64,000 nucleotides of DNA from a virus (IMGVR_UViG_3300020156_000003:46825-110824), one strand, 5' to 3'; shown: positions 16,168-48,933, counted from the first letter of the stretch. Translations and numbers: made by a program. The notes: generated from the sequence alone by a model not told the origin.

Positions 16168-16379
16168 CCGAAGCGGAATTCAAGGAGATCAAGGCGACGA
16201 TGCCCTGGATGGAGCGCACCATTGCAACCGGACGCGGCGGCATCATCCAGATCATCGACAACCAAGGGCGTGAAGTGCCGCTGTTCACGATCGTCAGGTT
16301 CCTCATGATGATCACCAACAAGCTGGCGCGACCGATCGCCGAATCCCAATCCACAACTACCGAAGGAGAAGCAACTTGA
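16164..16379 (+). CDS. Hypothetical small protein
   Basis: ATGA coupling with the upstream gene. Confidence 0.4.
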   Translation: MTEAEFKEIKATMPWMERTIATGRGGIIQIIDNQGREVPLFTIVRFLMMITNKLARPIAESQSTTTEGEAT

Positions 16380-17014
16380 AAATCCTCACCACCCTGACCG
16401 GCCCGTCCTGTGCGGGCAAGTCCACCCTGGAAGCCATGCTCGTCGAGCGCGGCTGCCTCAAAGCGGTATCCACGACCACCCGCACGCCGCGCGCCGGCGA
16501 GAAGGAGGGGGTGGACTACTACTTCGTCGACAAGTCCGAGTTCAAGCGGTTGCAAGTGCAGGGCGCCTTCATCGAGAGCGTCCAGTTCGGCGAGCATTAC
16601 TACGGCGTGTCAGTCATGGAGCTGAAGCGGCTGTGGGCCAAGGGCGACCATGTGATCCTGGTGTGCGAGCCGATCGGCGCCAAGCAGATTCGCGCATGGG
16701 CGGCCAATCGTCCGGACGTGTATCTGCGGCAGGTTTTCGTCGACAATCCTACCTCAGTCATCCGTGACCGATTCTTGCGCCGCTTCTACGAAGACATGCG
16801 TGACGCCGCGGCGCTCGGCACGCGCGGCGCGACGGCCAAGGTGTTGGACAGCTACAGCAAGCGACTGACCATCATGCAGACGACCGAGAAGGGCTGGATC
16901 GCCGAAGCCTACGGCACCCCGATCGGCACGCTGTACGACATCATCATCGAGCGCTTCGATGAGTCCAACGCCACGGTCATCGCACACGACATAGCCCACT
17001 GTATCCCCGCCTGA
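16376..17014 (+). CDS. gmk: Guanylate kinase
   Basis: GPSCAGKSTL P-loop. VSTTTRTPRAGEKEGVDYYFV matches the Gmk signature STTTRxPRxGExdGvdYhFv. TTG start. Confidence 0.85.
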   Translation: MKILTTLTGPSCAGKSTLEAMLVERGCLKAVSTTTRTPRAGEKEGVDYYFVDKSEFKRLQVQGAFIESVQFGEHYYGVSVMELKRLWAKGDHVILVCEPIGAKQIRAWAANRPDVYLRQVFVDNPTSVIRDRFLRRFYEDMRDAAALGTRGATAKVLDSYSKRLTIMQTTEKGWIAEAYGTPIGTLYDIIIERFDESNATVIAHDIAHCIPA

Positions 17015-17025
17015 CACTCTGCTAT

Positions 17026-17063
17026 CCTTCAGTGCAGGAGGAAAAACATGCCTGCACTGAAGG
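17026..17063 (+). promoter_or_regulatory. Perfect 13 bp inverted repeat that encloses the Shine-Dalgarno sequence and start codon of the gene at 17048.
   Basis: CCTTCAGTGCAGG-aggaaaaacATG-CCTGCACTGAAGG. Confidence 0.6.
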
Positions 17064-17695
17064 ACATCGGGACGCTCGCCAACCGCATCGGCGTCTCCTG
17101 CCTATCCCAATCCCCGCTCTGGCACCAGGACATCAGCACGATCGTCCCGGCGCAAATCTATGCCTTCGTCACCAAGATGAAGATGAACGGCCGCCTGGAC
17201 GAAGGCGAATCCGCCATCGAGATCGCACTTCGTGAAGTCCATCAGGCCGTCGCCCGCAACGAGATCGCCGTGCCGCCCATGTTGTCCTACTACCGGCCGA
17301 CGCGCATCTACCTGACCGCCGGCGAGCTAAAGAATGGCTTGATCTACCTCGGCGGCGCCCGCGCCACGGCGACGCTGTTTGCGCTGGAGACGGGAATGGA
17401 CGCGCTCGATGTCACACGCTTGACGCACAAGCGTCTCGCGGGATTTCGTCGTGTCCACCCCATGTCGGCACTGGCGGAGGAATGTCTGCGCATCACCCCG
17501 CGCCACCTGAGCTGCCCGTATGTGTTTTGGCGGGAAACCGATGACGGAATGACATTGCCCTTGTTCGGTATGGATGCGGCGATCTTTGACGCGTTCGGGC
17601 TGGTGTGGGCCGAACTGGCGCAGGGCTACGCTGACCTGATCCTGATCGACGAGGACGCGGATCGCGAATCGATCGAGTGCTGGCTAAACCGCTAA
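17048..17695 (+). CDS. Hypothetical protein
   Basis: ORF with its RBS inside the hairpin loop. Confidence 0.55.
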   Translation: MPALKDIGTLANRIGVSCLSQSPLWHQDISTIVPAQIYAFVTKMKMNGRLDEGESAIEIALREVHQAVARNEIAVPPMLSYYRPTRIYLTAGELKNGLIYLGGARATATLFALETGMDALDVTRLTHKRLAGFRRVHPMSALAEECLRITPRHLSCPYVFWRETDDGMTLPLFGMDAAIFDAFGLVWAELAQGYADLILIDEDADRESIECWLNR

Positions 17696-17733
17696 GTCGG
17701 CCCGTTGTGTTTTCGTCACAGTCGAAAATGGTT

Positions 17734-17754
17734 GGGTGGATAAAGGGGTGGATA
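17734..17754. repeat. Direct repeats GGGTGGATA x2, candidate integrase arm-type sites.
   Basis: GGGTGGATAaagGGGTGGATA. The CCACCC/GGGTGG theme recurs at 17919-17957. Confidence 0.4.
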
Positions 17755-17788
17755 TATGCCGTAATGCTTTGATTTCATGATGATTTGG

Positions 17789-17837
17789 GCGGCCTGCAAA
17801 GCCGTCTACGCCGGTTCAATTCCGACCCCCGCCTCCA
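17789..17837 (+). other. attP core: the 3' two-thirds of a tRNA-Cys(GCA) gene (anticodon arm to CCA). The 5' half is absent.
   Basis: Anticodon stem GCGGC/GCCGT with loop CUGCAAA. T-loop GGTTCAATTCC. Acceptor 3' strand CCCCGCC followed by discriminator U and CCA. Only about 49 nt of tRNA are present. Confidence 0.7.
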
Positions 17838-17863
17838 AATTCTTCCTTGTAATTCAAGGACTT

Positions 17864-17890
17864 AAACGCCGCCGCAAGGTGGCGTTTTTC
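17864..17890 (+). terminator. Terminator-like hairpin after the tRNA fragment.
   Basis: AACGCC-gccgcaaggt-GGCGTT followed by TTTTC. Confidence 0.5.
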
Positions 17891-17918
17891 ATTCCAGACC
17901 CGCCTAGACCGGCCAAAA

Positions 17919-17957
17919 CGGGTGGTGATCCACCCGAAAAAAGTGGCAAACCACCCG
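17919..17957. repeat. Palindrome CGGGTGGTGATCCACCCG plus a downstream CCACCCG. These are int-proximal binding-site candidates.
   Basis: Inverted GGGTGG/CCACCC repeats between the attP core and int. Confidence 0.4.
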
Positions 17958-18024
17958 TATAATGTGCGTGTTGGACGTTGACGCGAGTCGGCGACCTTGT
18001 TCGGCAGCATTGCGGGGAATCAAA

Positions 18025-19191
18025 ATGGCAACAAAAAGACAAACGCCAGGCGGCAAGTGGGAATACATCATCAAGCGCTCCAAGCTCCTGGAGAAGCCGA
18101 TCTACCTGACCTTCGATGACGAGGCCGAGGGTGACGCCTACGTCGCCAAGCTCGAAGCGCTCCTAGACCGCGGCGTGGTGCCGCACGAATACCAAAAGCA
18201 AGGCGAGAAGTACGTGCTGCTGGCCGAGCTGATTGCGGACTACTTGGTGCAGGTGCATGTGTCCGATCCGGACAGGAAAATTCTCAACGTGATCTATGCC
18301 CGCATCGGCAAGACCAGTCTGCGGCTCGTCAATTACGCTTGGGTGGAAGGCTGGATCGGCGACATGAAGACGCAGTTGAATTTGAAGCCAGGTACGATTC
18401 GTCACCACGTCGGCGCGCTCGGGCGCTGCTTCGATTGGGCAAGCCGGCGCAACGTCGTGCCGCTGGTGATCAACCCGATCAGGCAACTGCCAAAGAGCTA
18501 CGCGCAGTACAGCGAGCGCGACGCGCAACTGGCGCGCGCCGTCGACGACGACCATGTGCGCCAGGAGGACGAGGAACGTGACAGGCGTCTCGAAGAAGGG
18601 GAGGAGCAGCGGATCCGGCAGATCCTCGACGGCCACAAGCCTGAAGGCCGGCAGCGGGCAATGGCGCTGCGCTATCAGGGCGCCATCGAGCTGCTGTTCG
18701 ACCTGGCGCTGGAGACGGCGATGCGAATGCGGGAAATGTTCACGCTGACCCTGGATCAAGTCGACCTGGCGCGAAAGACGGTCTTTCTCGACAAGACCAA
18801 GAATGGCGACAAGCGGCAGGTGCCGCTGTCGTCGGTGGCGCTGTCGCGCATTCAGCGCTACATGGAGCAGGTGAGGGCCGCAGAGCGCGGCATGGAGGGG
18901 TTCAGCTTCGAGGGCAAGCAGCTCTTTCCTTGGTGGGATGGCTCGCTTGAGCGGGACGAATTGCGGCGCATTACGGCGCTGTTATCGCGCCAGTACGCGC
19001 GTGTTTTTGAGGCGGCCGGCTGTCACGATCTGCGCTTTCACGACTTGCGCCACGAAGCCACCAGTCGCTTCTTCGAGCGCACGCAGTTGCAGGACTTCGA
19101 GATCATGAAGATCACCGGCCACAGTTCCACACGGATGCTGCGGCGCTATTCCAACCTACGCGGCAGCGTGCTGGCCGACAAGCTCTGGTAG
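18025..19191 (+). CDS. int: Tyrosine recombinase (integrase)
   Basis: C-terminal catalytic motifs LRFHDLRHEATSRFFE...ITGHSSTRMLRRYSNL. Lies adjacent to the attP core. Confidence 0.9.
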   Translation: MATKRQTPGGKWEYIIKRSKLLEKPIYLTFDDEAEGDAYVAKLEALLDRGVVPHEYQKQGEKYVLLAELIADYLVQVHVSDPDRKILNVIYARIGKTSLRLVNYAWVEGWIGDMKTQLNLKPGTIRHHVGALGRCFDWASRRNVVPLVINPIRQLPKSYAQYSERDAQLARAVDDDHVRQEDEERDRRLEEGEEQRIRQILDGHKPEGRQRAMALRYQGAIELLFDLALETAMRMREMFTLTLDQVDLARKTVFLDKTKNGDKRQVPLSSVALSRIQRYMEQVRAAERGMEGFSFEGKQLFPWWDGSLERDELRRITALLSRQYARVFEAAGCHDLRFHDLRHEATSRFFERTQLQDFEIMKITGHSSTRMLRRYSNLRGSVLADKLW

Positions 19192-19727: not shown

Positions 19728-19746
19728 CGGCTACTGATCCATTCGA

Positions 19747-20952: not shown

Positions 20953-23031
20953 ATGCAGATGGCAATGACCGACCGAATTTTCATCATGCGTGAGGCAATT
21001 GGGAAGCTCACGCAAATGCTCGCAGGCAAAAGTGTGCAAGTTACGCAACGCGGCATCTCTGCTTACGTGCGTGCTGACGCCAAGGGTCGTCCCATCCTGG
21101 TCAACTTGCCCTATATCCCCGACAACGCCACCGACGAACTGCTGGACGCGATCCAGGGCTTCCTCGACCACGAAGTTGCGCACATTCTCTTTACCGACTT
21201 CAATGCGATGGACGAGGCGCAGCGTCACAACGCCGGCGGGATGCTGAACTTGATCGAAGACAGCCGCATCGAGCGCGCAATGGCCGATCGCTTCCAGGGT
21301 TCTGCTGAAAACATGGCCCGCATGGGCAAATTCTTCCTCGACAAGTACACCACGCCGAAGATGAACGAGGCGATCAAGAAAGGCGACAAGCACACGCTGA
21401 CCGGCGTGCTGATGGTGCCGCTGATTCGCGCAATGGCCGGCCAGCAAGTCTTCGCCGAGTTCATGAAGGACAAGATGGAGCACGTCGAGGAGGAATACAA
21501 CCGCATCAAAGACCTGGCGCCGCAGATTGCTGCCGCCTCCAGCACGAAAGACTGCCTGGAGTTGGCGAAGACGATTACGACGCGCTTGCGCGACGGCGTG
21601 CCGAAGCCCGCACCGAAGGACGAGGAAGAAGATCCGGCCGCAGCACCGATGCCGATCCCGATGCCTGGTGGTGGCAGCGGCAAGCCCGCGAACAAGAGCA
21701 AGGGCGCCGGCAAGAACAAGAGCAAGCCCGCACCGAAGGACGAGGAGGAAGAAAAAGACCCGACCGCCGGTGACGAGGAAGATGAGAAGGATCCGGCCGA
21801 CCCGAGCGAGGAAGAAAAAGACCCCACTGCCAGCGGCGACGAGAGCGAGGAAGAAAAAGACCCGAGCGCCCCCTCCGACGAGGATGAAGACGAGGATGTC
21901 GGCGCACCTGGCGACGAGGATGACGAAGGCGACATGTCTAAGGGCACCGCAAGCGACGGCGATGACGGCGAGGGCGGCGACGCGACTGGTAGTGCGCCTT
22001 CGCCCCCGACTGGCGAAGAAACCGAATTGCCTGAAGGCGGCAGCGCGTCGTGGGATGCCATCGACCGTGAAACGGCGAAGGACTACGACGACCTGGCATC
22101 GAACATCATCACCAACACGACTGCCCACGTCGCCTCGCACGCCGATTACCTCGTCTACTCAAAGGATCAGGACATCATCGAGCCGCTGCGTGTCGGTCGC
22201 GAGTACAAGGACTCGATGCTGACCGCCTTGCAGGACAAGGTCGATCACATGGTCGGCCCGCTCCAGAAAGACCTGGAGCGCGCGATCGCCGCGCGCAGCC
22301 TGTCGCAGTGGAATCCGGGCCACCGTTCGGGCCGCCTGAACGCATCGGCGCTGTCGCGCTTGGCGGTCAACGACGATCGCGTGTTCCGACGCAAGACCGA
22401 AGTCACCAGCAAGGATGTGGCGGTCGAACTGCTGATCGATATGTCCGGCTCGATGGACGGCTCCAAGATTCACACCGCGGCGCAGACTGCGTATGCCTTG
22501 TGCAACGTGCTGGAGCGCATCGGCATCCAATGCGAAGCGGTCTGCTTTACCACCGGCATGGGTAATTGCGGCGACCACGCGGCGATGCAGGCGGAGGAGG
22601 CAAAGATCGGGCGCAAGTATTCGCGCTCCGAGCAGCTTTACATGCCGATCCTCAAGAGCTTCAATGAGCGGCTGTCCACTGACGTGAAGAAGCGTTTCGG
22701 TTGGCTGCCCTACACGCAATCCATGCGTAACAACGTCGACGGCGAGTGCGTCGAGATCGCCGGTATGCGGCTGATGGGCCGCAAGGAGAAGGGCAAGATC
22801 CTGATGGTGCTGTCTGACGGCGCACCGAACTGCTACGGCAATACCAGGACGCTCGGTCCGCATCTGAAGAAGGTGGTGGAGAACCTGACGCGCGCCGGTT
22901 TGAACGTGATCGGCATCGGCATCGAGTCCAACGACGTGGAACGCTTCTATCCGAAGCACATGGTTCTGAACAAGGTCGAGGAGCTGCCGCTTGCTGTGAT
23001 GAAGGAGCTGCGCCAGCTCATCCTGAAGTAA
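20953..23031 (+). CDS. CobT-like von Willebrand factor A (vWA) domain protein with an internal acidic repeat region.
   Basis: MIDAS motif DMSGSMDGS (DxSxS). The C-terminal vWA fold is typical of phage CobT-like proteins. It is paired with the downstream AAA+ gene. Confidence 0.85.
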   Translation: MQMAMTDRIFIMREAIGKLTQMLAGKSVQVTQRGISAYVRADAKGRPILVNLPYIPDNATDELLDAIQGFLDHEVAHILFTDFNAMDEAQRHNAGGMLNLIEDSRIERAMADRFQGSAENMARMGKFFLDKYTTPKMNEAIKKGDKHTLTGVLMVPLIRAMAGQQVFAEFMKDKMEHVEEEYNRIKDLAPQIAAASSTKDCLELAKTITTRLRDGVPKPAPKDEEEDPAAAPMPIPMPGGGSGKPANKSKGAGKNKSKPAPKDEEEEKDPTAGDEEDEKDPADPSEEEKDPTASGDESEEEKDPSAPSDEDEDEDVGAPGDEDDEGDMSKGTASDGDDGEGGDATGSAPSPPTGEETELPEGGSASWDAIDRETAKDYDDLASNIITNTTAHVASHADYLVYSKDQDIIEPLRVGREYKDSMLTALQDKVDHMVGPLQKDLERAIAARSLSQWNPGHRSGRLNASALSRLAVNDDRVFRRKTEVTSKDVAVELLIDMSGSMDGSKIHTAAQTAYALCNVLERIGIQCEAVCFTTGMGNCGDHAAMQAEEAKIGRKYSRSEQLYMPILKSFNERLSTDVKKRFGWLPYTQSMRNNVDGECVEIAGMRLMGRKEKGKILMVLSDGAPNCYGNTRTLGPHLKKVVENLTRAGLNVIGIGIESNDVERFYPKHMVLNKVEELPLAVMKELRQLILK
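21601..22039 (+). repeat. Low-complexity acidic tandem repeats (EEEKDP units) within the cobT-like gene.
   Basis: PAPKDEEEDP / KPAPKDEEEEKDPTAGDEEDEKDPADPSEEEKDPTASGDESEEEKDPSAPSDEDEDED. Confidence 0.7.
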
Positions 23032-23051
23032 CACCGGATCGCGTGCAGGAT

Positions 23052-23067
23052 AAGTCACAACTGACTT
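23052..23067. promoter_or_regulatory. Operator palindrome
   Basis: AAGTCACAACTGACTT, followed about 20 nt later by TATCAT. Confidence 0.55.
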
Positions 23068-23161
23068 GCGTTTCCTGCCCGCTGACCGTATCATTCTTTC
23101 TGTCGCAGTAACAAAAACAGTTTTAGTTCATCGGGCAAATGCCCCTTTGTGGAGGATAGAA

Positions 23162-24364
23162 ATGACCGTTTCCAACGACAAGATCACCTGCAAAATCTGC
23201 GGTGCCAAAGAACACATCATCAAGACCCATCTCCAGAAGGATCATCCGGACTGGACGGTCGAGCGCTACCAGGAGCAGTTTCCCGAAGCGCCGCTGATGT
23301 CGGAGTTCGCCAAAGACCTGCTGAAGAAAAAGCAGGCTGAAAAGGCTGCTGCCGAAGGCGGCACGACGATGGCGATGGCTGGCACTGCCGCTGCCGCAGC
23401 GCCCGCCAATGTGGCGACGCTGATCCCGAAAGGCACCGTCATGAAGAAGGCGCTGCACGAAATCTTCGAGCTTGGCAAGGTGAAGGCCGCCATGAGCGCC
23501 AAGGGCGACCCGATCCCGATCTCCGTGATGTCGGCGCATGAGCATCAGGGCATGGTGCCGCCCGTCTCGGACAACTACGTCTACGAGATCGACGAGCTGA
23601 AGAACGTGATCCTGTCGCTCGAACTGAATATCCCTTGCTTGGTTTGGGGCCACAAGGGCGCGGGCAAGTCTGAGTTGCTTGAGCAGGTGGCCGCGCGCAC
23701 GAACCGCCCGATGATTCGCGTCCAGCACACGGTCAACACCGAAGAAAGCCACATCGTCGGTCAGTGGACGGTCAAGGCCGGCGCCACCGAGTTCGAGCTG
23801 GGGCCGCTGCCGCTGGCGATGCTCAATGGCTGGATCTACTGCGCCGACGAATACGACTTCGGTATGCCGTCTGTCCTGGCGGTCTATCAGGCCGTCCTTG
23901 AAGGTAAGTCACTGGTGATTAAAGAGGCTCCGGCGCACCTGCGCGTCATCAAGCCGCACAAGGACTTCCGTTTCGTCGCCACTGGCAATACCAACGGATC
24001 GGGCGACGAGTCGGGCCTCTATCAAGGCACGCTGATCCAGAACAGTGCCAACTACGACCGCTTCGGCATGGTGATCAACAAGAAGTACATGGATAAGCGC
24101 GCCGAGAGCCAGATTCTCCAGAACCACTGCAAGCTGGTACCGGCCGACGCGGACAAGATGGTCGAGTTCGCCAACCTTGTGCGCCAGTCCTACGACGCGG
24201 CGAAGATTTCCGACACGATCTCGCCGCGCACCCTGATCTACGCCAGCAAGATCGGCGTGATGCGCGGCTCCTTCCGCCAGGGCTTGCAACTGTCGTTCAT
24301 CAACAAGCTGTCCAAGATCGACCGCGAAGTCGCGGACGGCCTCGCACAACGCATCTTCGGGTAA
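23162..24364 (+). CDS. CobS-like / MoxR-family AAA+ ATPase
   Basis: Walker A GHKGAGKSEL. AAA+ core similar to phage CobS. The N-terminus has a Cys/His cluster CKICGAKEHIIKTHLQKDH. Confidence 0.85.
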   Translation: MTVSNDKITCKICGAKEHIIKTHLQKDHPDWTVERYQEQFPEAPLMSEFAKDLLKKKQAEKAAAEGGTTMAMAGTAAAAAPANVATLIPKGTVMKKALHEIFELGKVKAAMSAKGDPIPISVMSAHEHQGMVPPVSDNYVYEIDELKNVILSLELNIPCLVWGHKGAGKSELLEQVAARTNRPMIRVQHTVNTEESHIVGQWTVKAGATEFELGPLPLAMLNGWIYCADEYDFGMPSVLAVYQAVLEGKSLVIKEAPAHLRVIKPHKDFRFVATGNTNGSGDESGLYQGTLIQNSANYDRFGMVINKKYMDKRAESQILQNHCKLVPADADKMVEFANLVRQSYDAAKISDTISPRTLIYASKIGVMRGSFRQGLQLSFINKLSKIDREVADGLAQRIFG

Positions 24365-39533: not shown

Positions 39534-39573
39534 CGAGAAGGATTGGCCGAGCAGGGAGGATTGGGCGGAGGTC

Positions 39574-40299
39574 ATGAAGACAATCATCACGTCCAACCCT
39601 TCCGGCCCCCGTTCTTTCTTCGAGGAGCAATTCCTGACCAACCCCTGCGCCGAGATTCCGCTGACGACTATCCGACCGCGCGGCACGACAAGCATCCTGT
39701 CGGGCGCGTCGTCAGGCGTACATCTCGACGGCACCAAGCCTTACCTGCGCGACATCAAGATTCGCGGCCAGGAGATCACCGGCATCTGGCTCGATGAACT
39801 TGCAGAGATTGAGGATTATGAGGATTTTGATATGGCAAAAGACAACCCGATCCACCCCGAAGTGCATGAGGCGCTGACCAAGCTCGCCGAGCGCATGACG
39901 GCATGGTTTGTGGAGCAAAAAATCAATGGCTCTTATGACGACACGAAACTGAGCCTGCTGGCGCCTAGCATGTTGACCGTGAATACGCCAGGTAAAGGCT
40001 ACAAGAAGCACAACCACATCGGCGGCGAGGAGTTCTATCCGCAGAGTGTGTACGTCGGCAAGACCAATCGGCTGATCTTCGTATTCAAGCCGGTTGACGC
40101 GCAGCCTTACAGTGAAATGGAGATGACCGAGAACGAGGCGCAGACGCAACTCGACAAGTTTCGCAGCGTCGCCAACATGGCCGCTGGCGGCAACTTCCTC
40201 GGTGAGCTGAAGGCGATCCGAGAGCTGGAGAGTAAGGCGCGCGAGCAAGAGGCGATGAAGGACAAGTTCAACGAATACGCGGAGTTCGGATCATGGTGA
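39574..40299 (+). CDS. Hypothetical protein with an RNR-like NPCAEIPL motif.
   Basis: GGAGG RBS. FEEQFLTNPCAEIPLTT resembles the NPCGEI active-site loop of class II RNR. Confidence 0.45.
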   Translation: MKTIITSNPSGPRSFFEEQFLTNPCAEIPLTTIRPRGTTSILSGASSGVHLDGTKPYLRDIKIRGQEITGIWLDELAEIEDYEDFDMAKDNPIHPEVHEALTKLAERMTAWFVEQKINGSYDDTKLSLLAPSMLTVNTPGKGYKKHNHIGGEEFYPQSVYVGKTNRLIFVFKPVDAQPYSEMEMTENEAQTQLDKFRSVANMAAGGNFLGELKAIRELESKAREQEAMKDKFNEYAEFGSW

Positions 40300-40574
40300 C
40301 GGTCATGACGGCACCGACGATTGCCAATCCGTTGGACCTTGCCCACGTCGAAAGTGTGATCGATAGCATCTCCAATGCCGTCAATCACAATTCGATTGAG
40401 CTGCACGCTGCCGTTACCAAATTGGGGACGGAAATTGCTGACAACCCTACAGGCGGCCAGCGCACGGAAAAGCGCCTGTTGGAATTGGAGCTGACGGTCA
40501 AGGCAATAAAGGAGCAGGTTGATGGACTGAAGAAGCAACTGGCCGACAGACCTCAGACGGAGGCGACATGGTAG
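40293..40574 (+). CDS. Hypothetical protein
   Basis: ORF. Confidence 0.4.
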   Translation: MVTVMTAPTIANPLDLAHVESVIDSISNAVNHNSIELHAAVTKLGTEIADNPTGGQRTEKRLLELELTVKAIKEQVDGLKKQLADRPQTEATW

Positions 40575-41131
40575 ACCTGACACTACGCGGCGACTTCACC
40601 TGCTTGGAACGCGCGCGCATCTACGCCACCGCGGCACACGCGGCTGTCCAGCAAAAGCGCAAATACACCAACGAGCCTTACATCGTCCACCCGACCGAGG
40701 TCGCCGAGATTGTCATGGCGGTGCCGCACACGACTGAAATGGTGATGGCGGCTTTCCTACATGACGTGGTCGAGGACACTGGCGTGACCATCAAGGACAT
40801 CGTCCTGGAGTTCGGGCCGACTGTGGCGCTCTACGTCGATGGACTGACCAACGTCGCCAAGCCGGCCGACGGCAACCGCGCCAAGCGCTTCCAGATGAAC
40901 CTCGACCATCTGGCGATCCAATGCGCGGAAGTGCAGACGATCAAGGTCGCCGACCTCATTTCCAACACATCCACCATCGTCGCGTATGACCCGAAGTTTG
41001 CCAAGGTCTACCTGGAGGAGAAGCGTCAAGTCTTGCTGGCGCTGACTCAGGCAGACCCCACGCTGTTGAAGCGGGCATGGAACATCCTCAACGAATCACT
41101 GGCAACCCTCAACCAACTGGAGAAAGCATGA
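40568..41131 (+). CDS. HD-domain (p)ppGpp hydrolase-like protein (RelA/SpoT-homolog hydrolase domain, SAH/Mesh1-like).
   Basis: NEPYIVHPTEVAEIV...AAFLHDVVEDTGVTIKDIVLEFGPTVALYVDGLT aligns with the SpoT/Mesh1 HD signature EPYIxHPLxVA...AALLHDVVEDT...I...FG..VA.LV.GvT. Confidence 0.7.
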   Translation: MVDLTLRGDFTCLERARIYATAAHAAVQQKRKYTNEPYIVHPTEVAEIVMAVPHTTEMVMAAFLHDVVEDTGVTIKDIVLEFGPTVALYVDGLTNVAKPADGNRAKRFQMNLDHLAIQCAEVQTIKVADLISNTSTIVAYDPKFAKVYLEEKRQVLLALTQADPTLLKRAWNILNESLATLNQLEKA

Positions 41132-41748
41132 GCAGCAAAGTAAAAGTCGTCGGCCTCGATCCGAGTCTGAGCAATTTCGGTATCGCCTTCGCAACGCTTG
41201 ACCTCGACACCATGAAGTTCACGGTGGACGACTTGACGGTCGCGCAGACCGAACCCGAGAAAGACAAGAAAGTCCGCAAGCAGGTGCGCAAGAACAGCGA
41301 AGACCTGGAGCGCGCCCGCCTGCTGCACCGTGCGGCAATGGAAGCGGTGCAGGGCGAGGGCGTGCTGATGGCCTTTGTCGAAGTGCCGGTGGGCAGCCAG
41401 TCGGCGCGCGCGATGGCGTCCTATGGGGTCTGCCTGGGCGTGCTGGCGGCGGTCGCTGAAACTCTGCCGATCATTCAGGTCACGCCGACCGAAGTCAAGC
41501 TTGCCGGCTGCGGCATCAAGACCGCGACCAAGGATGAAATGATCGAAGCGATGGTGGCGAAGTATCCCGGCGCACCGTGGCCCATGAAGACGGTCAAGGG
41601 CGTGTCCACCCCGATTTCTTCCAAGTGCGAGCACCTGGCTGACGCGGTGGCCGCCATCGAGGCTGGCATTGCGTCCGACGAATTCCGGCAGACCATTGCC
41701 GTCTTCAAATCTAGCCCGATCTTCAAGCGCTTTGCCGCTGCGACCTAG
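41128..41748 (+). CDS. RuvC-like Holliday junction resolvase
   Basis: N-terminal VVGLDPSLSNFGIAFA. C-terminal CEHLADAVAAIEAG resembles the catalytic RuvC DAADAxAIA motif. Confidence 0.7.
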   Translation: MSSKVKVVGLDPSLSNFGIAFATLDLDTMKFTVDDLTVAQTEPEKDKKVRKQVRKNSEDLERARLLHRAAMEAVQGEGVLMAFVEVPVGSQSARAMASYGVCLGVLAAVAETLPIIQVTPTEVKLAGCGIKTATKDEMIEAMVAKYPGAPWPMKTVKGVSTPISSKCEHLADAVAAIEAGIASDEFRQTIAVFKSSPIFKRFAAAT

Positions 41749-42671: not shown

Positions 42672-45158
42672 ATGAGTAGTTATGCAACACCCGCCCGCAC
42701 CTACGCCAAGGGCATTGGCGACGCGGTCGCGGATCGCACCATCAACCGCAAGATCACCCGTCCGGTGCCGGCATATAAGAAGCCGATGGTGATCCCGCGC
42801 CGCGACGACATGGCGCTCGACGCCGAAGTGGCGGCATGGGCGAAGTCGAACAACCTTGCCATCGACGGCTATGACGTGACCTCTGGCGACGGCGAGTTCG
42901 TCGAGATCCTGTTGAACGTGGTCGGCGAGATCGATGTGGAGAAGTGGGAAGACGTAGCTTATCGCGTCGCCCTTGGCAGCTCCCTGCTGCACCCCCAGGC
43001 GAAAGACTTCTCCGCCGCCGACGTGCCGGCTACTTCCGAGCTGGCTGCGCTGGCAAACCGCCGCGCCCGCGAATTCGAGTCCATGCACCACCATCTGCGC
43101 CAGGCGTCCATTCTGATGTCCGGCCGCCACCTGCAACATGGTGACGAGACACAGCCGACCCGCAACATGGAAGTCTTCACGAACTGCTCCACCGCGGCGA
43201 TGAACGCGCTGAACTTCTACCTGCTCCTCAATGGCTCGGGTGTCGGTCGCAGCTACGACGACGCCATGATGCTGGTGGACTTTGCAGACCTGCCGATCAT
43301 CGTGCCGGTCATCGACTTCACCCATAAGGACGTGCAGACCGGCGAGATCGTCGGCGTGATGGATCGCCGCAGCGCCGAACACCTGTATGCCAACCGCACC
43401 ATCCACTACTTTGAAGTGCCGGACTCCCGCGAAGGATGGGCAAAGGCCAAAGAGAAGATGGAAGTCATGGCGTTCAAGAAGAAGCACCGCAAGGACGTGC
43501 TGATTTTGGACTTCACCAAGGTGCGTCCGCGCGGCAGCCCGATCGGTGGAATGCAGAACCGTCCGGCGTCCGGCCCTGGCCCGCTGATCTCGGCAATCCG
43601 CTGCATCGCCCAACTGCGTGACGCCGGCATGGCACCGTGGCGCAGCACCATGTATGCCGACCACTACAGCGCCGAGTGCGTGCTGGTTGGTGGCGCCCGC
43701 CGTGCTGCACGCATGGCAACAAAGACCTGGCGCGACGAAACCGTCCTCGACTTCATTCAACTCAAGCGCGGCGGGTTCCTGTGGTCGTCCAATAACAGCG
43801 TGACGGTGGATCAGGAGTTCTGGGATTACGTGCGCGGCGTGCGCCAGCCGGTGACGGAATACGAGCGCAAGATGTGCAAGCACGCCCATGCCGTGTTTGA
43901 CGCCTTGTGCGAAGCCGCCTACCACGACGGCACCGGCGAGCCTGGCATCATCACGGTGGACAAGTTGACCTGGAATGAAGAAGGCACCGACGTTCTGATG
44001 GACGGCAACTTCGCCGAGTCGGCCCGCTACAAGCTCGACGCCGACACGCTGGAGCTGACTGCCGCCCTGGCCCGCGCCTGGAAGAACTGCGCCTACAAGG
44101 TCATCACCAACCCCTGCGGCGAGATTGTGCTGTCGGCCCTTGGCGGCTACTGCGTGATCGCGGACGTGGTGCCGTTCCACGCCGGCCCGCCGGCGCCTTA
44201 CCGGAAAGAAAATCTGACGGTGTCGTGGGATGACGACGCTGAAGATGCCTTCCGCACCGCCACGCGCGCGCTGATTCGCACCAACCTGATGGACAGCCTC
44301 TACAGCAAGGAGGTCAAGCGCACTAACCGCATCGGCGTGGGCATCACGGGCCTGCACGAATACGCCTGGGCGCGCTTTGGCTACGGCTTCCGGGACATCA
44401 TCGACGAGGACAAGTCCAAGGACTTCTGGCTGACGCTCTCGCGCTTCAAGCGTGCAGTGCAGGATGAGGCGGCAAGCTACTCTGCGGAATTGGGCGTCGT
44501 GGCGCCGCACACCGACACAACTATCAAGCCGGCCGGCACCACGTCCAAGCTGTTCGGGCTGACCGAAGGCGCACACCTGGCGTCCATGCGCGAATACCTG
44601 CGTTGGGTGCAGTTCCGCAATGACGACCCGCTGATCGAGGAATACCGCGCGAAAGGCTATCCGGTCAAGAAGCTCCAGACCTACAGCGGAACGACCATTG
44701 TGGGCTTCCCGACCAAGCCGACCATCTGCACGCTTGGCATGGGCGACAAGCTGGTGACGGCGGCCGAAGCCACTCCCGAGGAGCAATACCAGTATCTCCG
44801 CCTGCTGGAGAAATACTGGATCACCGGCGTGGCCGAAGACGGCGTGACGCCGCTGCGTGAGACGGGCAATCAGGTGTCCTACACCTTGAAATACCTGCCC
44901 GCATCGGTGAGCTTCGAGGAGTTCAAGCGCACGCTGCTGGAAGGGCAAAGCACGATCCGTTGCTGCTCTGTTATGCCGCAGGGCGACACGTCGGCATACG
45001 AGTATCAGCCCGAGCAGCCGGTCACGAAGGCGGAGTTCGAGCTGATCGCCGCTGCCATCCAGGCGGACGTGAAGGAAGACATCGGCTTCGAGCATGTGGA
45101 CTGCTCGACTGGCGCCTGCCCGACCTCGTTCAACGAGAACGAGGCCGCCACCGCGTAA
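42672..45158 (+). CDS. Ribonucleotide reductase, probably class II (NrdJ-like).
   Basis: Active-site loop VITNPCGEIVLSALGGYC. C-terminal Cys pair CCSVMPQGD. No NrdB-like gene is nearby. Confidence 0.8.
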   Translation: MSSYATPARTYAKGIGDAVADRTINRKITRPVPAYKKPMVIPRRDDMALDAEVAAWAKSNNLAIDGYDVTSGDGEFVEILLNVVGEIDVEKWEDVAYRVALGSSLLHPQAKDFSAADVPATSELAALANRRAREFESMHHHLRQASILMSGRHLQHGDETQPTRNMEVFTNCSTAAMNALNFYLLLNGSGVGRSYDDAMMLVDFADLPIIVPVIDFTHKDVQTGEIVGVMDRRSAEHLYANRTIHYFEVPDSREGWAKAKEKMEVMAFKKKHRKDVLILDFTKVRPRGSPIGGMQNRPASGPGPLISAIRCIAQLRDAGMAPWRSTMYADHYSAECVLVGGARRAARMATKTWRDETVLDFIQLKRGGFLWSSNNSVTVDQEFWDYVRGVRQPVTEYERKMCKHAHAVFDALCEAAYHDGTGEPGIITVDKLTWNEEGTDVLMDGNFAESARYKLDADTLELTAALARAWKNCAYKVITNPCGEIVLSALGGYCVIADVVPFHAGPPAPYRKENLTVSWDDDAEDAFRTATRALIRTNLMDSLYSKEVKRTNRIGVGITGLHEYAWARFGYGFRDIIDEDKSKDFWLTLSRFKRAVQDEAASYSAELGVVAPHTDTTIKPAGTTSKLFGLTEGAHLASMREYLRWVQFRNDDPLIEEYRAKGYPVKKLQTYSGTTIVGFPTKPTICTLGMGDKLVTAAEATPEEQYQYLRLLEKYWITGVAEDGVTPLRETGNQVSYTLKYLPASVSFEEFKRTLLEGQSTIRCCSVMPQGDTSAYEYQPEQPVTKAEFELIAAAIQADVKEDIGFEHVDCSTGACPTSFNENEAATA

Positions 45159-45164
45159 GAGAGG

Positions 45165-45694: not shown

Positions 45695-45758
45695 CCAGGA
45701 CGCCCGTTGCGCCTGCTTCGGGCTTGTATTGTTTCATCACACGTAGAAAGGGAAACAC

Positions 45759-46289: not shown

Positions 46290-46290
46290 T

Positions 46291-46428
46291 ATGACGATTC
46301 TTTTCAATGGCAGCACCGTGTTCTGGATTGCGCTGATCTGTTTGGCGGTCGGCGGAATCCTCGGTGCGGCTGCCGGCATCGAAGTCAATCAAAAAGCCAA
46401 CAACCTCCTGAAGAAAAAGAAGACATGA
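46291..46428 (+). CDS. Small transmembrane protein
   Basis: TGATATG coupling with the upstream gene. One hydrophobic helix. Confidence 0.35.
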   Translation: MTILFNGSTVFWIALICLAVGGILGAAAGIEVNQKANNLLKKKKT

Positions 46429-47261
46429 CCTTTCCTGTAAAAGTGATCGAGGACAGCATCGCCAGCAATGGCAAGCGCCTCACCACGCTGCAACTGAGCT
46501 ACCCGCGTTTCATCCACGCCGAGTTCATGACGCACCGTGTTTTCAGCCGCAACGCCTCGTCGTCCCGCGCCATTCCGGTCGCCAAGATGATCGAGCAGGT
46601 GCGCAACAACCCCGCCATGCCGATCCATTGGGGCAAGAACCAGCCTGGCATGCAGGCGAACGAGCAACTGACCGGCGACGAACTGCGCCAGGCGAAAGAG
46701 GCATGGATGACGGCCGCGCAACTTGCGGCAACCCAGGCATCCATCCTCAACAGCATTGGCGCCCATAAACAGGTTGCCAACCGCATCCTGGAGCCGTTCC
46801 AGTTCATCCATGTGATCGTGACGGCGTCCGAGTGGGACAACTTCTTCAGCCTGCGTGCGCATCCCGACGCGCAGCCGGAGATCCAGGCGCTCGCCGTCGA
46901 AATGCGTCGCCAGATGCTCATGTCGTGTCCTGTCAAGCGCGCGTGTGACCGGCAGAACGCTTACGGCTGGCACCTGCCGTATGTGACCCGCGACGAGCGT
47001 GTTGCCTACAACGACACGCCCGAATTCCTGGCGAAGCTGTCGGCAGCCCGTTGCGCTCGGGTGTCCTACCTGAACCACGACGGCACCACGCCTTCGATAG
47101 AGAAGGACTTGGAGCTGTATGACCGCCTGGTCGGGATGCGTCCGCTGCACGCTTCGCCGATCGAGCATCAGGCTTACCCGCTGCCGAAGGCGGATCAGCG
47201 CAGCAACAACTTCGTCGGCTGGCGGCAGTATCGCGAGCTGGTCGAGCATTCCTTCAACTAA
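46425..47261 (+). CDS. thyX: Flavin-dependent thymidylate synthase
   Basis: ThyX motif RHR...S...SxR, seen as MTHRVFSRNASSSRAIP. Confidence 0.85.
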   Translation: MTFPVKVIEDSIASNGKRLTTLQLSYPRFIHAEFMTHRVFSRNASSSRAIPVAKMIEQVRNNPAMPIHWGKNQPGMQANEQLTGDELRQAKEAWMTAAQLAATQASILNSIGAHKQVANRILEPFQFIHVIVTASEWDNFFSLRAHPDAQPEIQALAVEMRRQMLMSCPVKRACDRQNAYGWHLPYVTRDERVAYNDTPEFLAKLSAARCARVSYLNHDGTTPSIEKDLELYDRLVGMRPLHASPIEHQAYPLPKADQRSNNFVGWRQYRELVEHSFN

Positions 47262-47275
47262 CCGGAGATCCAGAC

Positions 47276-47599
47276 ATGAAATACATCCTCGCAATCCTGT
47301 TCGGCAAAGACTACGTCAACAAGGCTATCGTCCCGTTCGTCGGCGGCAAGAAGACGGTCAACACCGCGCTGATCCACTTCAACAAGGCGCTGGCTGACCT
47401 CGAAGCGGTTGAGAAGGCCGAAGCCGCTGAAGCCGAGCGCAAGAAGCAGGAAATCGCCGAAGCGCAAGCGGCCCTGGCCGCGTCGACCGCCGAAGCCACC
47501 CGCGCCCGCAACGTCGCCGGCCGCATTCGCAGCCTGCTTGGCGAAGACCTCGACGATGCGCCCGTCAATCTGCGCGTGGCCCAGTTCGACGCTCGCTGA
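47276..47599 (+). CDS. Hypothetical coiled-coil protein
   Basis: ORF with an Ala/Glu-rich helix. Confidence 0.45.
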   Translation: MKYILAILFGKDYVNKAIVPFVGGKKTVNTALIHFNKALADLEAVEKAEAAEAERKKQEIAEAQAALAASTAEATRARNVAGRIRSLLGEDLDDAPVNLRVAQFDAR

Positions 47600-47606
47600 T
47601 TCGCCT

Positions 47607-47639
47607 AAGTCACTGGTGATGCAATCTCGCATCACCAGC
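47607..47639 (+). promoter_or_regulatory. A TAAGTCAC half-site plus a 10 bp hairpin.
   Basis: CTGGTGATGC-aatctc-GCATCACCAG, with no U-tract after the stem. Confidence 0.4.
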
Positions 47640-47668
47640 CGCCCAACACCTACAACCTGGAGAAACAC

Positions 47669-48304
47669 ATGGATTCCAAGACCTACATTGCCAACGCCAT
47701 TCGCACCGAGAGCGTGCCGGAGAAGCTGACCGTTCATGAAACGGCCTTCCACGCGCTCCTGGAGATGGCGACGGCAACCGCGCTGATCGCCGATCAGTTC
47801 AAGCGTCGCCTCTACTACGGCAAGCCGATGGACAAGCAAAAGCTGCTCGCCAACATCAGTCTCGTCTACCACATGGCCGGCTACCTCGGCGCCGGCATCG
47901 AAGGGGGCGTGGACTTCGACAGCCGCATTTCCGACGAGGTAATGGCGAAGACGCGCGCTGACATGCCGGAAGAAATCCGCAACATGAATCTGGACAACCT
48001 GAACATTCGCCTGCTGCACGCGGCCCTCGGCGTGTTCACCGAAGCCGGCGAGGCGCTGGAAGCGCTGCGCACGCAGTATGAAACCGGCGCGCTGGACGTG
48101 GTCAATGTCGGTGAAGAACTGGCCGGCGACGTGTCCTGGTATCAGGCGATCGGCATCGATGCCGCGGGCCTCGATCTCGACAATGAGCGCGCGAAGAATA
48201 TCGCCAAGTTGAAGCTGCGCTATCCCAACAAGTTCGACGCAGAGGCGGCGGTCAACCGTGACGTGGCGGCCGAGCGGGCAGTCCTCGAAGGCCAGGTCGC
48301 GTAA
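47669..48304 (+). CDS. MazG-like nucleotide pyrophosphohydrolase
   Basis: All-alpha protein with EE.GE-type acidic motifs. C-terminal KLKLRYPNKF resembles the MazG KLxRRHPHVF motif. Confidence 0.5.
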   Translation: MDSKTYIANAIRTESVPEKLTVHETAFHALLEMATATALIADQFKRRLYYGKPMDKQKLLANISLVYHMAGYLGAGIEGGVDFDSRISDEVMAKTRADMPEEIRNMNLDNLNIRLLHAALGVFTEAGEALEALRTQYETGALDVVNVGEELAGDVSWYQAIGIDAAGLDLDNERAKNIAKLKLRYPNKFDAEAAVNRDVAAERAVLEGQVA

Positions 48305-48933
48305 TGATCAGCTTGACCGGCGCACACCGCACCGGCAAGACCTCGCTGGCGAAGGCGTATGCCGAGAAGCACGGCATTACCTTCGTCGCGACAACGGCCT
48401 CCGCGGTATTCAAGCGGCTGGGCCTGGATCCCGCCAAGACCTACGACTTCGGCACGCGCCTGATGGTGCAGTCCGAGATCCTGAAGGAATTTGACGTGAT
48501 TTGGGGCCAGCACAGTCTGGAGCAGGCCATCACCGACCGCTGTCCGATCGACCTGCTTGGTTACACGATGGCAGAGGCGGTCGGGACTGCCGTCAAAAAG
48601 AAGGAGATCGACCGCTTCGAGCGGTATGTGCAGGAGTGCTTCGATGTCCTCAACAAGCGCTTCTCCGTGATTGTGCTGGTGCAGCCTGGCATCCCGATCG
48701 TCAAGGAGAAGGGCAAGGCGGCGTTGAACAAAGCCTACATCGAGCACCTGAACAGCACGATGTTTGGCTTGATGATGGACGAGCGTACCCGCGTGGCGCA
48801 TTACTACATCCGTCGCAACATGACGGACATGGATGATCGCCTCTCGGCGCTCGAAAACGCGGTCGGCAAGGTGGACTACGCATTCAAGCAGGACGCGCTG
48901 GCGTATCGCGCCAGTGGTGGCGTGTTTCACTAG
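48304..48933 (+). CDS. P-loop NTPase, a nucleotide or nucleoside kinase-like protein.
   Basis: Walker A GAHRTGKTS. Resembles AAA_28 / dNMP-kinase-like proteins. Confidence 0.5.
   Translation: MISLTGAHRTGKTSLAKAYAEKHGITFVATTASAVFKRLGLDPAKTYDFGTRLMVQSEILKEFDVIWGQHSLEQAITDRCPIDLLGYTMAEAVGTAVKKKEIDRFERYVQECFDVLNKRFSVIVLVQPGIPIVKEKGKAALNKAYIEHLNSTMFGLMMDERTRVAHYYIRRNMTDMDDRLSALENAVGKVDYAFKQDALAYRASGGVFH

Follow-up and report, generated by a model that had tools for sequence, protein, structure and literature searches.

A PaSpo-like candidate alarmone hydrolase and ordinary dNTP-supply genes in the replication module of a temperate phage

Phage-encoded small alarmone hydrolases (SAHs) are a known and already tested kind of protein. 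PaSpo of Salmonella phage SSU5, a member of the SAH class of the RSH superfamily, and the PVP-SE1 SAH neutralise five of the five toxic small alarmone synthetases (toxSAS) tested (Jimmy et al. 2020, PMC7229694), and PaSpo strips tRNA of the modification that FaRel2 adds (PMC11245113). The activity demonstrated for phage SAHs is this neutralisation of toxSAS, not a collapse of the housekeeping stringent response (PMC7229694, PMC11245113). Cyanophage MazG neither binds nor hydrolyses (p)ppGpp (Rihtman et al. 2019, PMC6850273); cleavage of ppGpp is reported for a single phage MazG-like enzyme, Atd1 of Pectobacterium phage PcCB7V (Km ~50 uM; Ho et al. 2022 preprint, bioRxiv 10.1101/2022.06.09.495361), which came from a screen that drew on ORFs at most four genes away from nucleotidyltransferase genes. 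As for guanylate kinase (Gmk), inhibition by (p)ppGpp is found in Firmicutes and some other phyla, not in Proteobacteria (PMC6783271).

We analyzed a 64-kb stretch of DNA (the window) from a temperate phage of ~111 kb (110,838 bp). The original prediction had joined six of its genes, for an HD hydrolase, a MazG-like protein, Gmk, NrdJ, ThyX and a P-loop kinase, into a single strategy for collapsing the stringent response and pushing GTP and dNTP supply. Profile matches confirmed all six ORFs at the following coordinates and in the predicted enzyme classes, which are real and not chance assignments.

16376..17014, plus strand: phage-type Gmk with enlarged LID and C-terminal region (212 aa; PF00625, 6.6e-22)
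17962-19191: integrase
40293..40574, plus strand: small ORF (orf93) of 93 aa, directly 5' of the SAH gene and overlapping its start (35%-identical counterpart in the relative L072)
40568..41131, plus strand: candidate SAH with a single RelA/SpoT-type HD hydrolase domain and no synthetase domain (187 aa; HD_4, TIGR00691 and PDB matches)
41128..41748, plus strand: RuvC-like Holliday-junction resolvase, translationally coupled to SAH (phrog_159, 3.4e-46; start taken from the source-contig gene call)
42672..45158, plus strand: class II ribonucleotide reductase of the RTPR (monomeric NrdJ) type (TIGR02505, RNR-II_ins_dom, RNR barrel)
46425..47261, plus strand: flavin-dependent thymidylate synthase ThyX, phage-type THR...S variant (PF02511, 3.8e-14; phrog_85, 4.4e-87)
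47669..48304, plus strand: tandem MazG-like (all-alpha) nucleoside-triphosphate pyrophosphatase (211 aa, fused tandem)
48304..48933, plus strand: P-loop nucleoside/nucleotide kinase of the AAA_28 family (209 aa; AAA_28, 2.7e-6; phrog_2107 'thymidylate kinase', 2.4e-7)
49015..49620, plus strand: Nmad5 (nucleotide-modification-associated domain 5) gene, immediately after the kinase (PF18757, 7.4e-25)

The explanation that we judge probable, taken as a whole, is that the window corresponds to the arm for replication and nucleotide metabolism in a temperate siphophage or phage-plasmid of the SSU5 / RHEph10 / pAMS5a / ANB28 supergroup, and that the genes in question are two functionally separate things, namely an ordinary dNTP-supply set and an independently acquired PaSpo-like SAH. 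It is built on assignment to families, on catalytic residues that are intact, and on gene order and patterns of conservation, and it is substrates and physiological roles that we infer. The DnaE-type polymerase was 45% identical to that of RHEph10-type Rhizobium phages, 42% to that of ANB28 and 36% to that of SSU5. The closest relatives were found in Burkholderiales, with core proteins of relatives, one of them a Massilia contig, at 65-73% identity; four of these (L070, L072, L073 and L074) were compared over ~20 kb of each contig. Signs of a temperate lifestyle were the integrase in the window, integrases at the ends of relatives, and RepC and ParAB in pAMS5a. Hosts of the relatives comprise Burkholderiales, Alphaproteobacteria and Gammaproteobacteria, and the likely hosts of this phage are Proteobacteria.

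The HD ORF, predicted to be a small stand-alone alarmone-hydrolase candidate, bore out that reading. It contains HPTEVAEI and FLHDVVEDT and scored above the curated threshold of Pfam HD_4 (PF13328; E = 1.2e-14, 54.8 bits, cut-off 27.2), with further matches to the hydrolase part of TIGR00691 spoT_relA (8e-24, model positions 2-126) and to phrog_990 (3e-36). Among PDB chains of Rel, SpoT, Mesh1 and SAH, the best matches reached ~1e-16, which was the level of the long Rel/SpoT hydrolase domains, while those to Mesh1 were weaker (1e-8 to 1e-10). No second Pfam domain (synthetase, TGS or ACT) was detected besides HD_4 in the 187 aa. In an alignment with SSU5 PaSpo and three other homologues, residues H24, R31, K32, Y38, H41, H65, D66, E69, D70, D129 and N133 were invariant, so that the hydrolase motif, with our own mapping onto Rel numbering, is complete: Mn-binding H41, H65-D66 and D129, the ED diad E69-D70, R31-K32 and N133. 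These residues also aligned with Rel and SpoT structures. Identity to SSU5 PaSpo was 46% over the full length and 53% over the tblastn core, and it is this pairwise identity that relates the protein to the PaSpo subfamily. The two have in common a single HD_4 domain, identical hydrolase motif residues and phages of the same DnaE-polymerase supergroup; SSU5 PaSpo differs in having a C-terminal insertion and extension and in lying ~36 kb downstream of DnaE, compared with 11 kb in the window. Together, these comparisons identify the ORF, at the level of sequence, as a genuine stand-alone alarmone-hydrolase candidate of the PaSpo-like phage family.

The SAH gene belongs to an operon for replication/recombination and lies in it between SbcC and RuvC, where its start overlaps the orf93 stop and its stop codon TGA overlaps the RuvC ATG (ATGA). 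The RuvC-like gene was 66-70% identical in close relatives. That L072 has the orf93 counterpart but no SAH shows SAH alone to have been inserted between orf93 and RuvC. No SAH was present in pAMS5a or, at either of the slots examined within ~20 kb per contig, in L070, L072 and L073, that is, in three of the four closest relatives, all three of which do carry the MazG-like gene and the kinase. In L074, SAH occupies the other slot, after the kinase gene. The best IMG/VR homologues of SAH were ~60% identical and had no neighbour genes in common with the window. This gene-order evidence indicates that SAH is sporadic across the relatives, varies in slot and was apparently acquired independently.

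The second supposed alarmone-degrading gene, at 47669-48304, is indeed MazG-like (phrog_229, 7.8e-28; ExxE...EExGD), while the premise attached to it, that cyanophage MazG degrades (p)ppGpp, is contradicted by direct work on that enzyme (PMC6850273). Its N-terminal half is degenerate, having lost ExxE and kept RTES, and its C-terminal half, bearing ExxE and EExGD, would be the catalytic one. In the metal-binding ExxE...EExxD motif, E125, E128, E149, E150 and D154 were invariant in 30 homologues; the acidic motif aligned with EEiGD of the MazG-related protein 2yxh and with E. coli MazG, and the protein has the four-helix all-alpha fold. Pfam supported the expected families for the HD ORF (HD_4) and for Gmk (Guanylate_kin) and gave no match for the MazG-like ORF at E<=0.01, hence none to MazG PF03819, a model to which a few members of this protein family have a precomputed match. 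With cyanophage MazGs the catalytic domain shares 36-39% identity. Cyanophage MazG of the S-PM2 type and other phage phrog_229 pyrophosphatases share its ExxE...EExGD motif and all-alpha NTP-pyrophosphatase fold, whereas the fusion into a tandem, with an N-terminal repeat lacking ExxE, and the position below Pfam MazG detection set the window protein apart from cyanophage MazG.

Atd1 is likewise phage-encoded and belongs to the same broad all-alpha NTP-pyrophosphatase superfamily. It most probably corresponds to QQG33500.1 (86 aa), an assignment made from the position of this ORF two annotated genes from a nucleotidyltransferase gene, and neither BLASTP nor profile comparison detected similarity between this presumed Atd1 and the window protein. 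The PcCB7V homologue of the window protein (QQG33552.1, 47% identical) is a different gene. In sequence, therefore, the window protein resembles the (p)ppGpp-negative cyanophage MazG and not the (p)ppGpp-positive presumed Atd1.

The original prediction had called Gmk bona fide. The guanylate-kinase residues are intact, but the term overstates the case because the match to Guanylate_kin PF00625 (78.5 vs 25.2 bits) is limited to residues 7-118 and the score against NCBIfam TIGR03263 (101 bits) misses the equivalog cut-off of 160.45. Like cellular Gmk (yeast 1GKY, E. coli 2AN9), the protein has the P-loop, the GMP site (yeast S34, R38, R41, Y50, E69 and Y78, all kept in the alignment to 1GKY) and three LID arginines, the equivalence of the LID residues to those of yeast being our own reading; unlike cellular Gmk, it is enlarged and divergent from the LID to the C-terminus. 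Within its family of 28 members, the P-loop, S32, T34, T35, R36, R39, Y48, E67, Y76, R132, R136 and R163 were invariant. This is a phage/prophage family, found mostly on 102-113 kb contigs, and the slot next to ligase is identical in ANB28, L077 and L078; among the matches listed, none came from the contigs of L070, L072 and L073. The proposed link through (p)ppGpp inhibition of Gmk is not supported here, since the relatives' hosts are Proteobacteria, where Gmk is not inhibited (PMC6783271).

The assignments of class II reductase and ThyX proved sound. NrdJ scored above the cut-offs of PF21995 and PF02867 and contains TNPCGEI (the NPCGE active-site motif); it matched TIGR02505 at 7e-63, though under the equivalog cut-off. 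It is 61% identical in protein and 76% in nucleotide sequence to its counterpart in the Methylobacterium phage-plasmid pAMS5a, the latter figure applying to 117-kb phage-plasmids of Methylobacterium and Shinella. In all four closest relatives the same slot holds class Ia NrdAB, which NrdJ replaces in the window. ThyX exceeded the PF02511 threshold (53.3 vs 24.8 bits), with a TIGR02170 score under the cut-off. Its RHRx7-8S motif reads THRx7S, a variant common to all phage relatives compared, and PcCB7V ThyX belongs to the same common phage type. Across close relatives its identity is 54-69%, and the gene is invariably 5' of the MazG-like/kinase pair, which is translationally coupled through a TAATG overlap. 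The order ThyX, MazG-like, kinase is kept in four of four close relatives at 51-69% identity, which marks the three genes, by sequence conservation, as a module of the lineage.

For the kinase, predicted to be dNMP-kinase-like, the P-loop NMP-kinase-like fold stood, and no thymidylate/dNMP-kinase family model supported the narrower reading; thymidylate-kinase models in Pfam and NCBIfam gave no match. The AAA_28 match is marginal (28.2 vs 27 bits). The GxxRxGK (Walker A), D78-R79-x-P81 and G137-K138 motifs were invariant in the family alignment. Foldseek matched the AF2 model (pLDDT 92.7) to thymidylate kinases as well as to deoxyadenosine kinase and the NadR ribosylnicotinamide-kinase domain; most of the query-normalised TM-scores fell at 0.55-0.64. 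The modeled structure thus predicts a P-loop NMP-kinase-like fold class. With thymidylate and deoxynucleoside kinases and the NadR domain matching about equally, reading the protein as a dTMP kinase is a guess from gene context.

The T4-type dNTP gene set consists of a ribonucleotide reductase, thymidylate synthase, the dCTPase/dUTPase gp56 and the dNMP kinase gp1. As in that set, a reductase and a thymidylate synthase are combined in the window with an NTP pyrophosphatase and nucleotide kinases, all in a replication module. The window differs in having NrdJ rather than NrdAB and ThyX rather than ThyA; its pyrophosphatase is a MazG-type tandem, and an AAA_28 kinase and Gmk take the place of gp1. 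We propose that RTPR-type NrdJ, the ThyX/MazG-like/kinase module and phage-type Gmk make up the dNTP-supply set. The module would serve (d)NTP clean-up or conversion to (d)NMPs, dTMP synthesis and dTMP re-phosphorylation, and Gmk would convert (d)GMP to (d)GDP.

Could these genes nevertheless act together? In the toolkit reading, SAH and the MazG-like protein would each break down (p)ppGpp, with the phage Gmk bypassing an inhibited host Gmk, so that the stringent response collapses and GTP/dNTP supply is pushed. The SAH is real and intact, the three genes share one genome and one strand, phages can be restricted by the stringent response and do counteract it (PMC13483052), and, since Atd1 is reported to hydrolyse ppGpp, the window MazG-like protein might have a (p)ppGpp role as well. 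We nonetheless regard a joint toolkit as unlikely: the nearest characterised MazGs are the cyanophage enzymes, inactive on (p)ppGpp, similarity to the presumed Atd1 ORF is lacking, and Proteobacterial Gmk is not (p)ppGpp-inhibited. Moreover, the six genes are spread over 32 kb of a co-directional replication module, with unrelated genes for replication and recombination in among them; distances of 7 to 31 kb separate the SAH, MazG-like and Gmk genes, and replication genes occupy these gaps. Their conservation also differs gene by gene, with ThyX, MazG-like and kinase kept as a module, Gmk in its own fixed slot, NrdJ as a replacement and SAH sporadic. Because the genes are scattered and were acquired separately, they do not amount to a coordinated anti-stringent-response toolkit. 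A different joint role, a DNA-base-modification pathway of ThyX, MazG-like protein, kinase and Nmad5, would have the MazG-like protein exclude a canonical dNTP (cf. MazZ and the dCTPase/dUTPase of modified-DNA phages) and the kinase act on a modified nucleotide. The slot after the kinase is variable, however, holding Nmad5 in the window and SAH in L074, and Nmad5 is missing from it in each of the four close relatives, all of them retaining ThyX, the MazG-like gene and the kinase; the window ORFs scanned contained no domain of PurZ, DpdA, a hydroxymethylase or a glycosyltransferase, and ThyX is of the common type also present in PcCB7V. This pathway therefore seems quite improbable.

There remained the question of what SAH itself acts on, and for whom. 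It might serve the element, as a type IV antitoxin to a toxSAS encoded elsewhere on the 111-kb element or by tuning alarmones in lysogeny or plasmid carriage. PbcSpo-family SAHs act as antitoxins in FaRel toxSAS operons, the lineage is temperate (integrases; RepC and ParAB of pAMS5a), and with 64 kb of the ~111-kb genome covered, the rest could encode a cognate toxSAS or another RSH protein; yet the window ORFs scanned (64 kb) yielded no RelA_SpoT synthetase domain, and SAH is embedded by overlapping start and stop in the SbcC-RuvC operon rather than forming a bicistronic TA-like pair, which leaves service to the element with a slim chance. Slimmer still is the prospect that alarmones are not the main substrate and that the protein is, for example, an NADPH phosphatase of the metazoan Mesh1 type or a promiscuous orphan SAH. 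Mesh1 and other SAHs do have the same fold and residues, and metabolic promiscuity is reported for an orphan bacterial SAH (PMC9765508), but the closest tested homologue, SSU5 PaSpo, acts on toxSAS products, and the matches to Rel/SpoT are stronger than those to Mesh1.

Our preferred reading is thus that the window holds a known kind of phage counter-defence gene together with ordinary dNTP-supply genes; a unified toolkit is not supported. The window SAH adds one member to the phage SAHs. Its Mn-dependent HD site would take the 3'-pyrophosphate off (p)ppGpp, (p)ppApp or 3'-pyrophosphorylated tRNA, and this action would shield the infection from toxSAS-type abortive infection (CapRel, FaRel, PhRel) and perhaps also from growth arrest brought on by alarmones.

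The window has a G+C content of ~60% and almost all of its genes on the + strand; profile scans show it to be the arm of a large tailed-phage genome devoted to replication and nucleotide metabolism.

Gene order in the window. Assignments are from PHROGs, Pfam and NCBIfam scans; positions are starts unless a range is stated.
3586-4920, metallophosphoesterase; its N-terminus has a sub-threshold match to PF18780 (homing-endonuclease-associated repeat; E 0.0011, 19.7 bits vs. a 26-bit cut-off)
4938, PhoH
7181, DnaB helicase
10493, primase
11880-12383, small WGR-domain protein adjoining primase; a WGR protein is annotated in plasmid pAMS5a too
13325, ATP-dependent ligase
16376, guanylate kinase (Gmk)
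17962-19191, tyrosine integrase (PF00589)
20953, CobT-like VWA protein, 692 aa
23066, CobS/MoxR-like AAA ATPase, 432 aa; the CobT-CobS pair spans 20953-24364
24370, sigma factor
26017, DnaE-type polymerase
30782, SSB
31658, 5'-3' exonuclease
32631, RecA/UvsX
35829, SbcD
37590, SbcC
39523-40299, small ORF
40293, small ORF of 93 aa (orf93)
40568, + strand, HD protein, candidate small alarmone hydrolase (SAH)
41128, RuvC
42672-45158, NrdJ
46425, ThyX
47669-48304, MazG-like protein
48304, P-loop kinase
49015-49620, Nmad5 (PF18757, E 7e-25)
52057, Band_7
53891, DnaQ-like exonuclease

Every ORF that the original prediction had joined into a unified anti-stringent-response toolkit was found in its predicted place, but the integrated reading is only partly supported: gene order shows these genes to be spread across 32 kb, with unrelated genes for replication and recombination in between, and the SAH was inserted separately. 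The best-supported reading is instead that a counter-defence gene of a known type, the SAH, was inserted independently into a module for dNTP supply and replication that is ordinary and typical of the lineage.

To place the phage, we compared it with phage and plasmid collections, neither of which held a near-identical record; megablast queries of 9 kb (phages) and 20 kb (plasmids) returned only short ThyX and NrdJ matches and no close DNA relative. The DnaE-type polymerase is 45% identical to that of Rhizobium phages (RHEph10/RHph_Y2_11 type), 42% to that of Stenotrophomonas phage ANB28, 41% to that of Pseudomonas phage nickie and 36% to that of Salmonella phage SSU5, which places the phage in a supergroup of 100-120 kb siphophages that includes many phage-plasmids. 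At the nucleotide level, NrdJ is 76% identical to 117-kb plasmids of Methylobacterium sp. AMS5 (pAMS5a) and Shinella zoogloeoides, and pAMS5a carries RepC and ParA/ParB alongside capsid, terminase and tail genes. The closest relatives found, whose core proteins are 65-73% identical, were L070, a 112,962-bp contig of a Massilia sp. TN1-12 assembly, and three metagenome contigs, L072, L073 and L074. The MazG-like, kinase and Gmk proteins each have a 100% identical counterpart on the source contig (110,838 bp), which is probably the whole genome. Given the Massilia relative, together with Gmk homologues in Undibacterium and MazG-like homologues in Herbaspirillum and Ralstonia, a member of the Burkholderiales (Betaproteobacteria) is the most likely host. 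The tyrosine integrase (1.8e-20) lies within the replication arm, with Gmk on one side and CobT on the other. An integrase also follows Gmk in the Undibacterium relative L078, where shared gene content stops; in L077, a soil-metagenome contig, the break falls in the same place, and IS elements mark it. Since an integrase is present in both the window and L078, the lineage appears temperate, with some members that are not plasmids. The CobT-like/CobS pair lies directly 5' of the sigma factor and DnaE, an arrangement kept in pAMS5a and ANB28. At the left end (1-2000), G+C falls to 0.49 vs. ~0.60 elsewhere and high-GC3 ORFs are few; this stretch may be a regulatory region, an origin or a module boundary. 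Scanning the window for tRNAs and Rfam families detected no RNA genes, and in the 39-50 kb stretch predicted promoters and terminators were no more numerous than in shuffled controls.

We then examined the HD protein, which matched Pfam HD_4 above threshold, TIGR00691 (spoT_relA) over the hydrolase part and, in a PDB sequence search, the solved structures of SpoT, Rel, RelSeq, Mesh1 and bacterial SAHs. In an alignment of the window SAH with PaSpo (the SAH of phage SSU5), the L074 SAH and two IMG/VR homologues, H24, R31, K32, Y38, H41, H65-D66, E69-D70, D129 and N133 were invariant; we read these as the residues that, in Rel hydrolase domains, bind metal, make up the ED diad or contact the base. 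The protein is only 187 aa long and has no further domain, and its predicted identity as a stand-alone alarmone hydrolase is thus well supported by sequence. Homologues were found by tblastn in 269 phage records. PaSpo is 53% identical to the window SAH over the core and 46% over the full length; both PaSpo and the SAH of PVP-SE1 neutralized all five toxic small alarmone synthetases (toxSAS) tested (PMC7229694), and PaSpo is routinely co-expressed for CapRel purification (PMC9712102). Phage SAHs are a class of gene known and characterized before.

The position of the SAH was less constant than its sequence. The backbone common to pAMS5a and the window comprises PhoH, DnaB, primase, ligase, CobT, CobS, DnaE, SSB, exonuclease, RecA, SbcD, SbcC, RuvC, NrdJ, ThyX and DnaQ, and pAMS5a has no SAH, Gmk, MazG-like gene or kinase. 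No SAH was present in the SbcC-to-RuvC interval of L070, L072 or L073. Because the orf93 homologue directly adjoins RuvC in the SAH-free interval of L072, the 564-bp SAH gene alone was inserted in the window, where it shares bases with the orf93 stop at its 5' end and with the RuvC start at its 3' end (ATGA). In L074, an HD_4 gene 44% identical to the window SAH sits 3' of the kinase, the slot taken by Nmad5 in the window, and the SAH is found 36-39 kb 3' of DnaE in SSU5 and the Rhizobium phages, vs. 11 kb 3' of it in the window. A conserved SAH operon was also considered and rejected, since none of 63 IMG/VR loci, including those of the best homologues (~60% identical), shared a neighbor gene with the window SAH. 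Together, these results show that the SAH is mobile cargo and no part of a fixed gene set, shifting slot within an otherwise syntenic backbone, as is often the case for counter-defence cargo.

A second exchange concerns the ribonucleotide reductase. Between RuvC and ThyX, all four closest relatives encode class Ia NrdA and NrdB, whereas the window encodes an RTPR-type NrdJ most similar to that of alphaproteobacterial phage-plasmids; the RNR class has been swapped in place. The ORF at 39523-40299, which follows SbcC, is 42-47% identical in the relatives, where it is 219-222 aa long, and carries at aa ~38-75 a window-specific in-frame insert, TNPCAEIPLTTIRPRGTTSILSGASSGVHLDGTKPYLRD. This insert fuses two motifs of the window NrdJ (aa 476-490 and 616-652; 46% identity, E 6e-7), omitting the ~125 residues that separate them in NrdJ, and may be a recombination scar tied to the RNR swap.

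Gmk aligns over its N-terminal two-thirds to the yeast and E. coli enzymes, with the P-loop and the GMP-site residues (yeast S34, R38, R41, Y50, E69 and Y78) conserved, and scores under the NCBIfam equivalog cut-off. Across 28 full-length homologues (38-65% identical), R132, R136 and R163 are invariant as well, and we interpret them as LID arginines flanking an enlarged LID. The slot just 3' of ligase is the same in ANB28, L077 and L078; none of the best 120 of 212 Gmk matches came from the three closest 112-kb contigs. The original prediction had tied this enzyme to the alarmone through inhibition of Gmk in many bacteria. According to PMC6783271, which draws on Liu et al. (2015), the Gmk of several phyla, Proteobacteria excepted, is inhibited by (p)ppGpp; on that account, a bypass of inhibited host Gmk is unlikely for the inferred host range.

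The MazG-like protein had no match in Pfam or NCBIfam but matched phrog_229, "MazG-like pyrophosphatase" (7.8e-28). An alignment of 30 homologues showed invariant E14 (RTES), E125-x2-E128, E149-E150-x-G-D154, W157-Y158, K180 and R184. Searched against the PDB, the family profile gave weak matches (E ~0.01) to MazG proteins across the EExGD region, and the single sequence gave nothing useful; the AlphaFold model (pLDDT 94) returned no significant Foldseek match. Both halves match QQG33552.1, a 120-aa single-domain protein of Pectobacterium phage PcCB7V (33% for the N-terminal and 47% for the C-terminal half), and the N-terminal repeat keeps RTES but has lost the ExxE glutamates. The protein is a fused internal tandem duplication, reminiscent of the two-domain E. 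coli MazG, and should form a pseudo-dimer in which only one active site is left. Homologues of its C-terminal domain occur in 607 phage records, among them cyanophage MazGs that are 36-39% identical. It had been proposed that this family degrades (p)ppGpp in cyanophages; that premise is contradicted. The window protein has the fold and motifs of MazG, and its closest relative among assayed enzymes, the cyanophage MazG, speaks against (p)ppGpp as the substrate. We also considered orthology to Atd1, a MazG-like pyrophosphatase of PcCB7V that reportedly cleaves ppGpp with a Km of ~50 uM and came from a screen of ORFs lying no more than four genes away from a nucleotidyltransferase gene (bioRxiv 10.1101/2022.06.09.495361). 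From the scope of that screen, we infer that Atd1 is QQG33500.1 (86 aa, two genes from the nucleotidyltransferase). Neither the window protein nor its family profile showed similarity to QQG33500.1, and the PcCB7V homologue is another gene; orthology was rejected, subject to this identification of Atd1.

The 209-aa P-loop kinase is strongly conserved within the lineage: 298 homologues were found, the best 120 of which are 49-78% identical, many on 103-114 kb contigs. Invariant motifs are GxxRxGK, D78-R79-x-P81-x-D83, Q127-P-G-I and G137-K138. Against the PDB, the single sequence gave nothing useful and the family profile only P-loop matches. Foldseek matches of its model (pLDDT 92.7) were of similar quality for deoxyadenosine kinases, thymidylate kinases and the ribosylnicotinamide-kinase domain of NadR (query-normalized TM-scores mostly 0.55-0.64, E ~1e-4), which gives it a nucleoside/nucleotide kinase fold without fixing specificity. 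The kinase ATG overlaps the MazG-like stop (TAATG), and all four close relatives keep the order ThyX, small ORF, MazG-like, (small ORF), kinase, with identities of 51-69%; ThyX itself is the common phage variant with the THR...S motif, also found in the relatives and in PcCB7V. From gene context, these genes may act as a module for dTTP and the dNTP pool: the pyrophosphatase would yield (d)NMP, ThyX would make dTMP and the kinase would rephosphorylate. It is quite improbable that the conserved, translationally coupled pair of tandem MazG-like protein and AAA_28 kinase is instead an uncharacterized two-enzyme system beyond plain dNTP housekeeping, forming with the mobile SAH a nucleotide-based counter-defence hotspot; in one version of this, the pyrophosphatase would act on a signaling or alarmone nucleotide and the kinase would be of a ribosylnicotinamide type or use an unusual nucleotide.

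Directly after the kinase, the window encodes Nmad5, which is not in the post-kinase slot of the close relatives; in Dhillonvirus, it is nmad5 that Tmn, a defence system, senses (PMC11846954). The window ORFs that were scanned gave no PurZ, DpdA or Que-type domain, and both a Z-genome (MazZ with PurZ and DatZ) and 7-deazaguanine modification were rejected, as their defining genes were not found among these ORFs.

That a phage carries HD, MazG and Gmk genes together gives no warrant for an integrated anti-stringent-response pathway. None of the content is categorically new, and the tandem MazG-kinase pair and the slot-hopping of the SAH are of modest interest. Toxic alarmone synthetases serve as effectors of anti-phage defence, and it is established that phage SAHs neutralize them. 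To these SAHs the window adds a divergent one, from a little-sampled lineage of phage-plasmids and temperate phages whose hosts are most likely Burkholderiales. The shifts of slot of the SAH are of use in cataloguing anti-defence genes and leave the overall picture unchanged.
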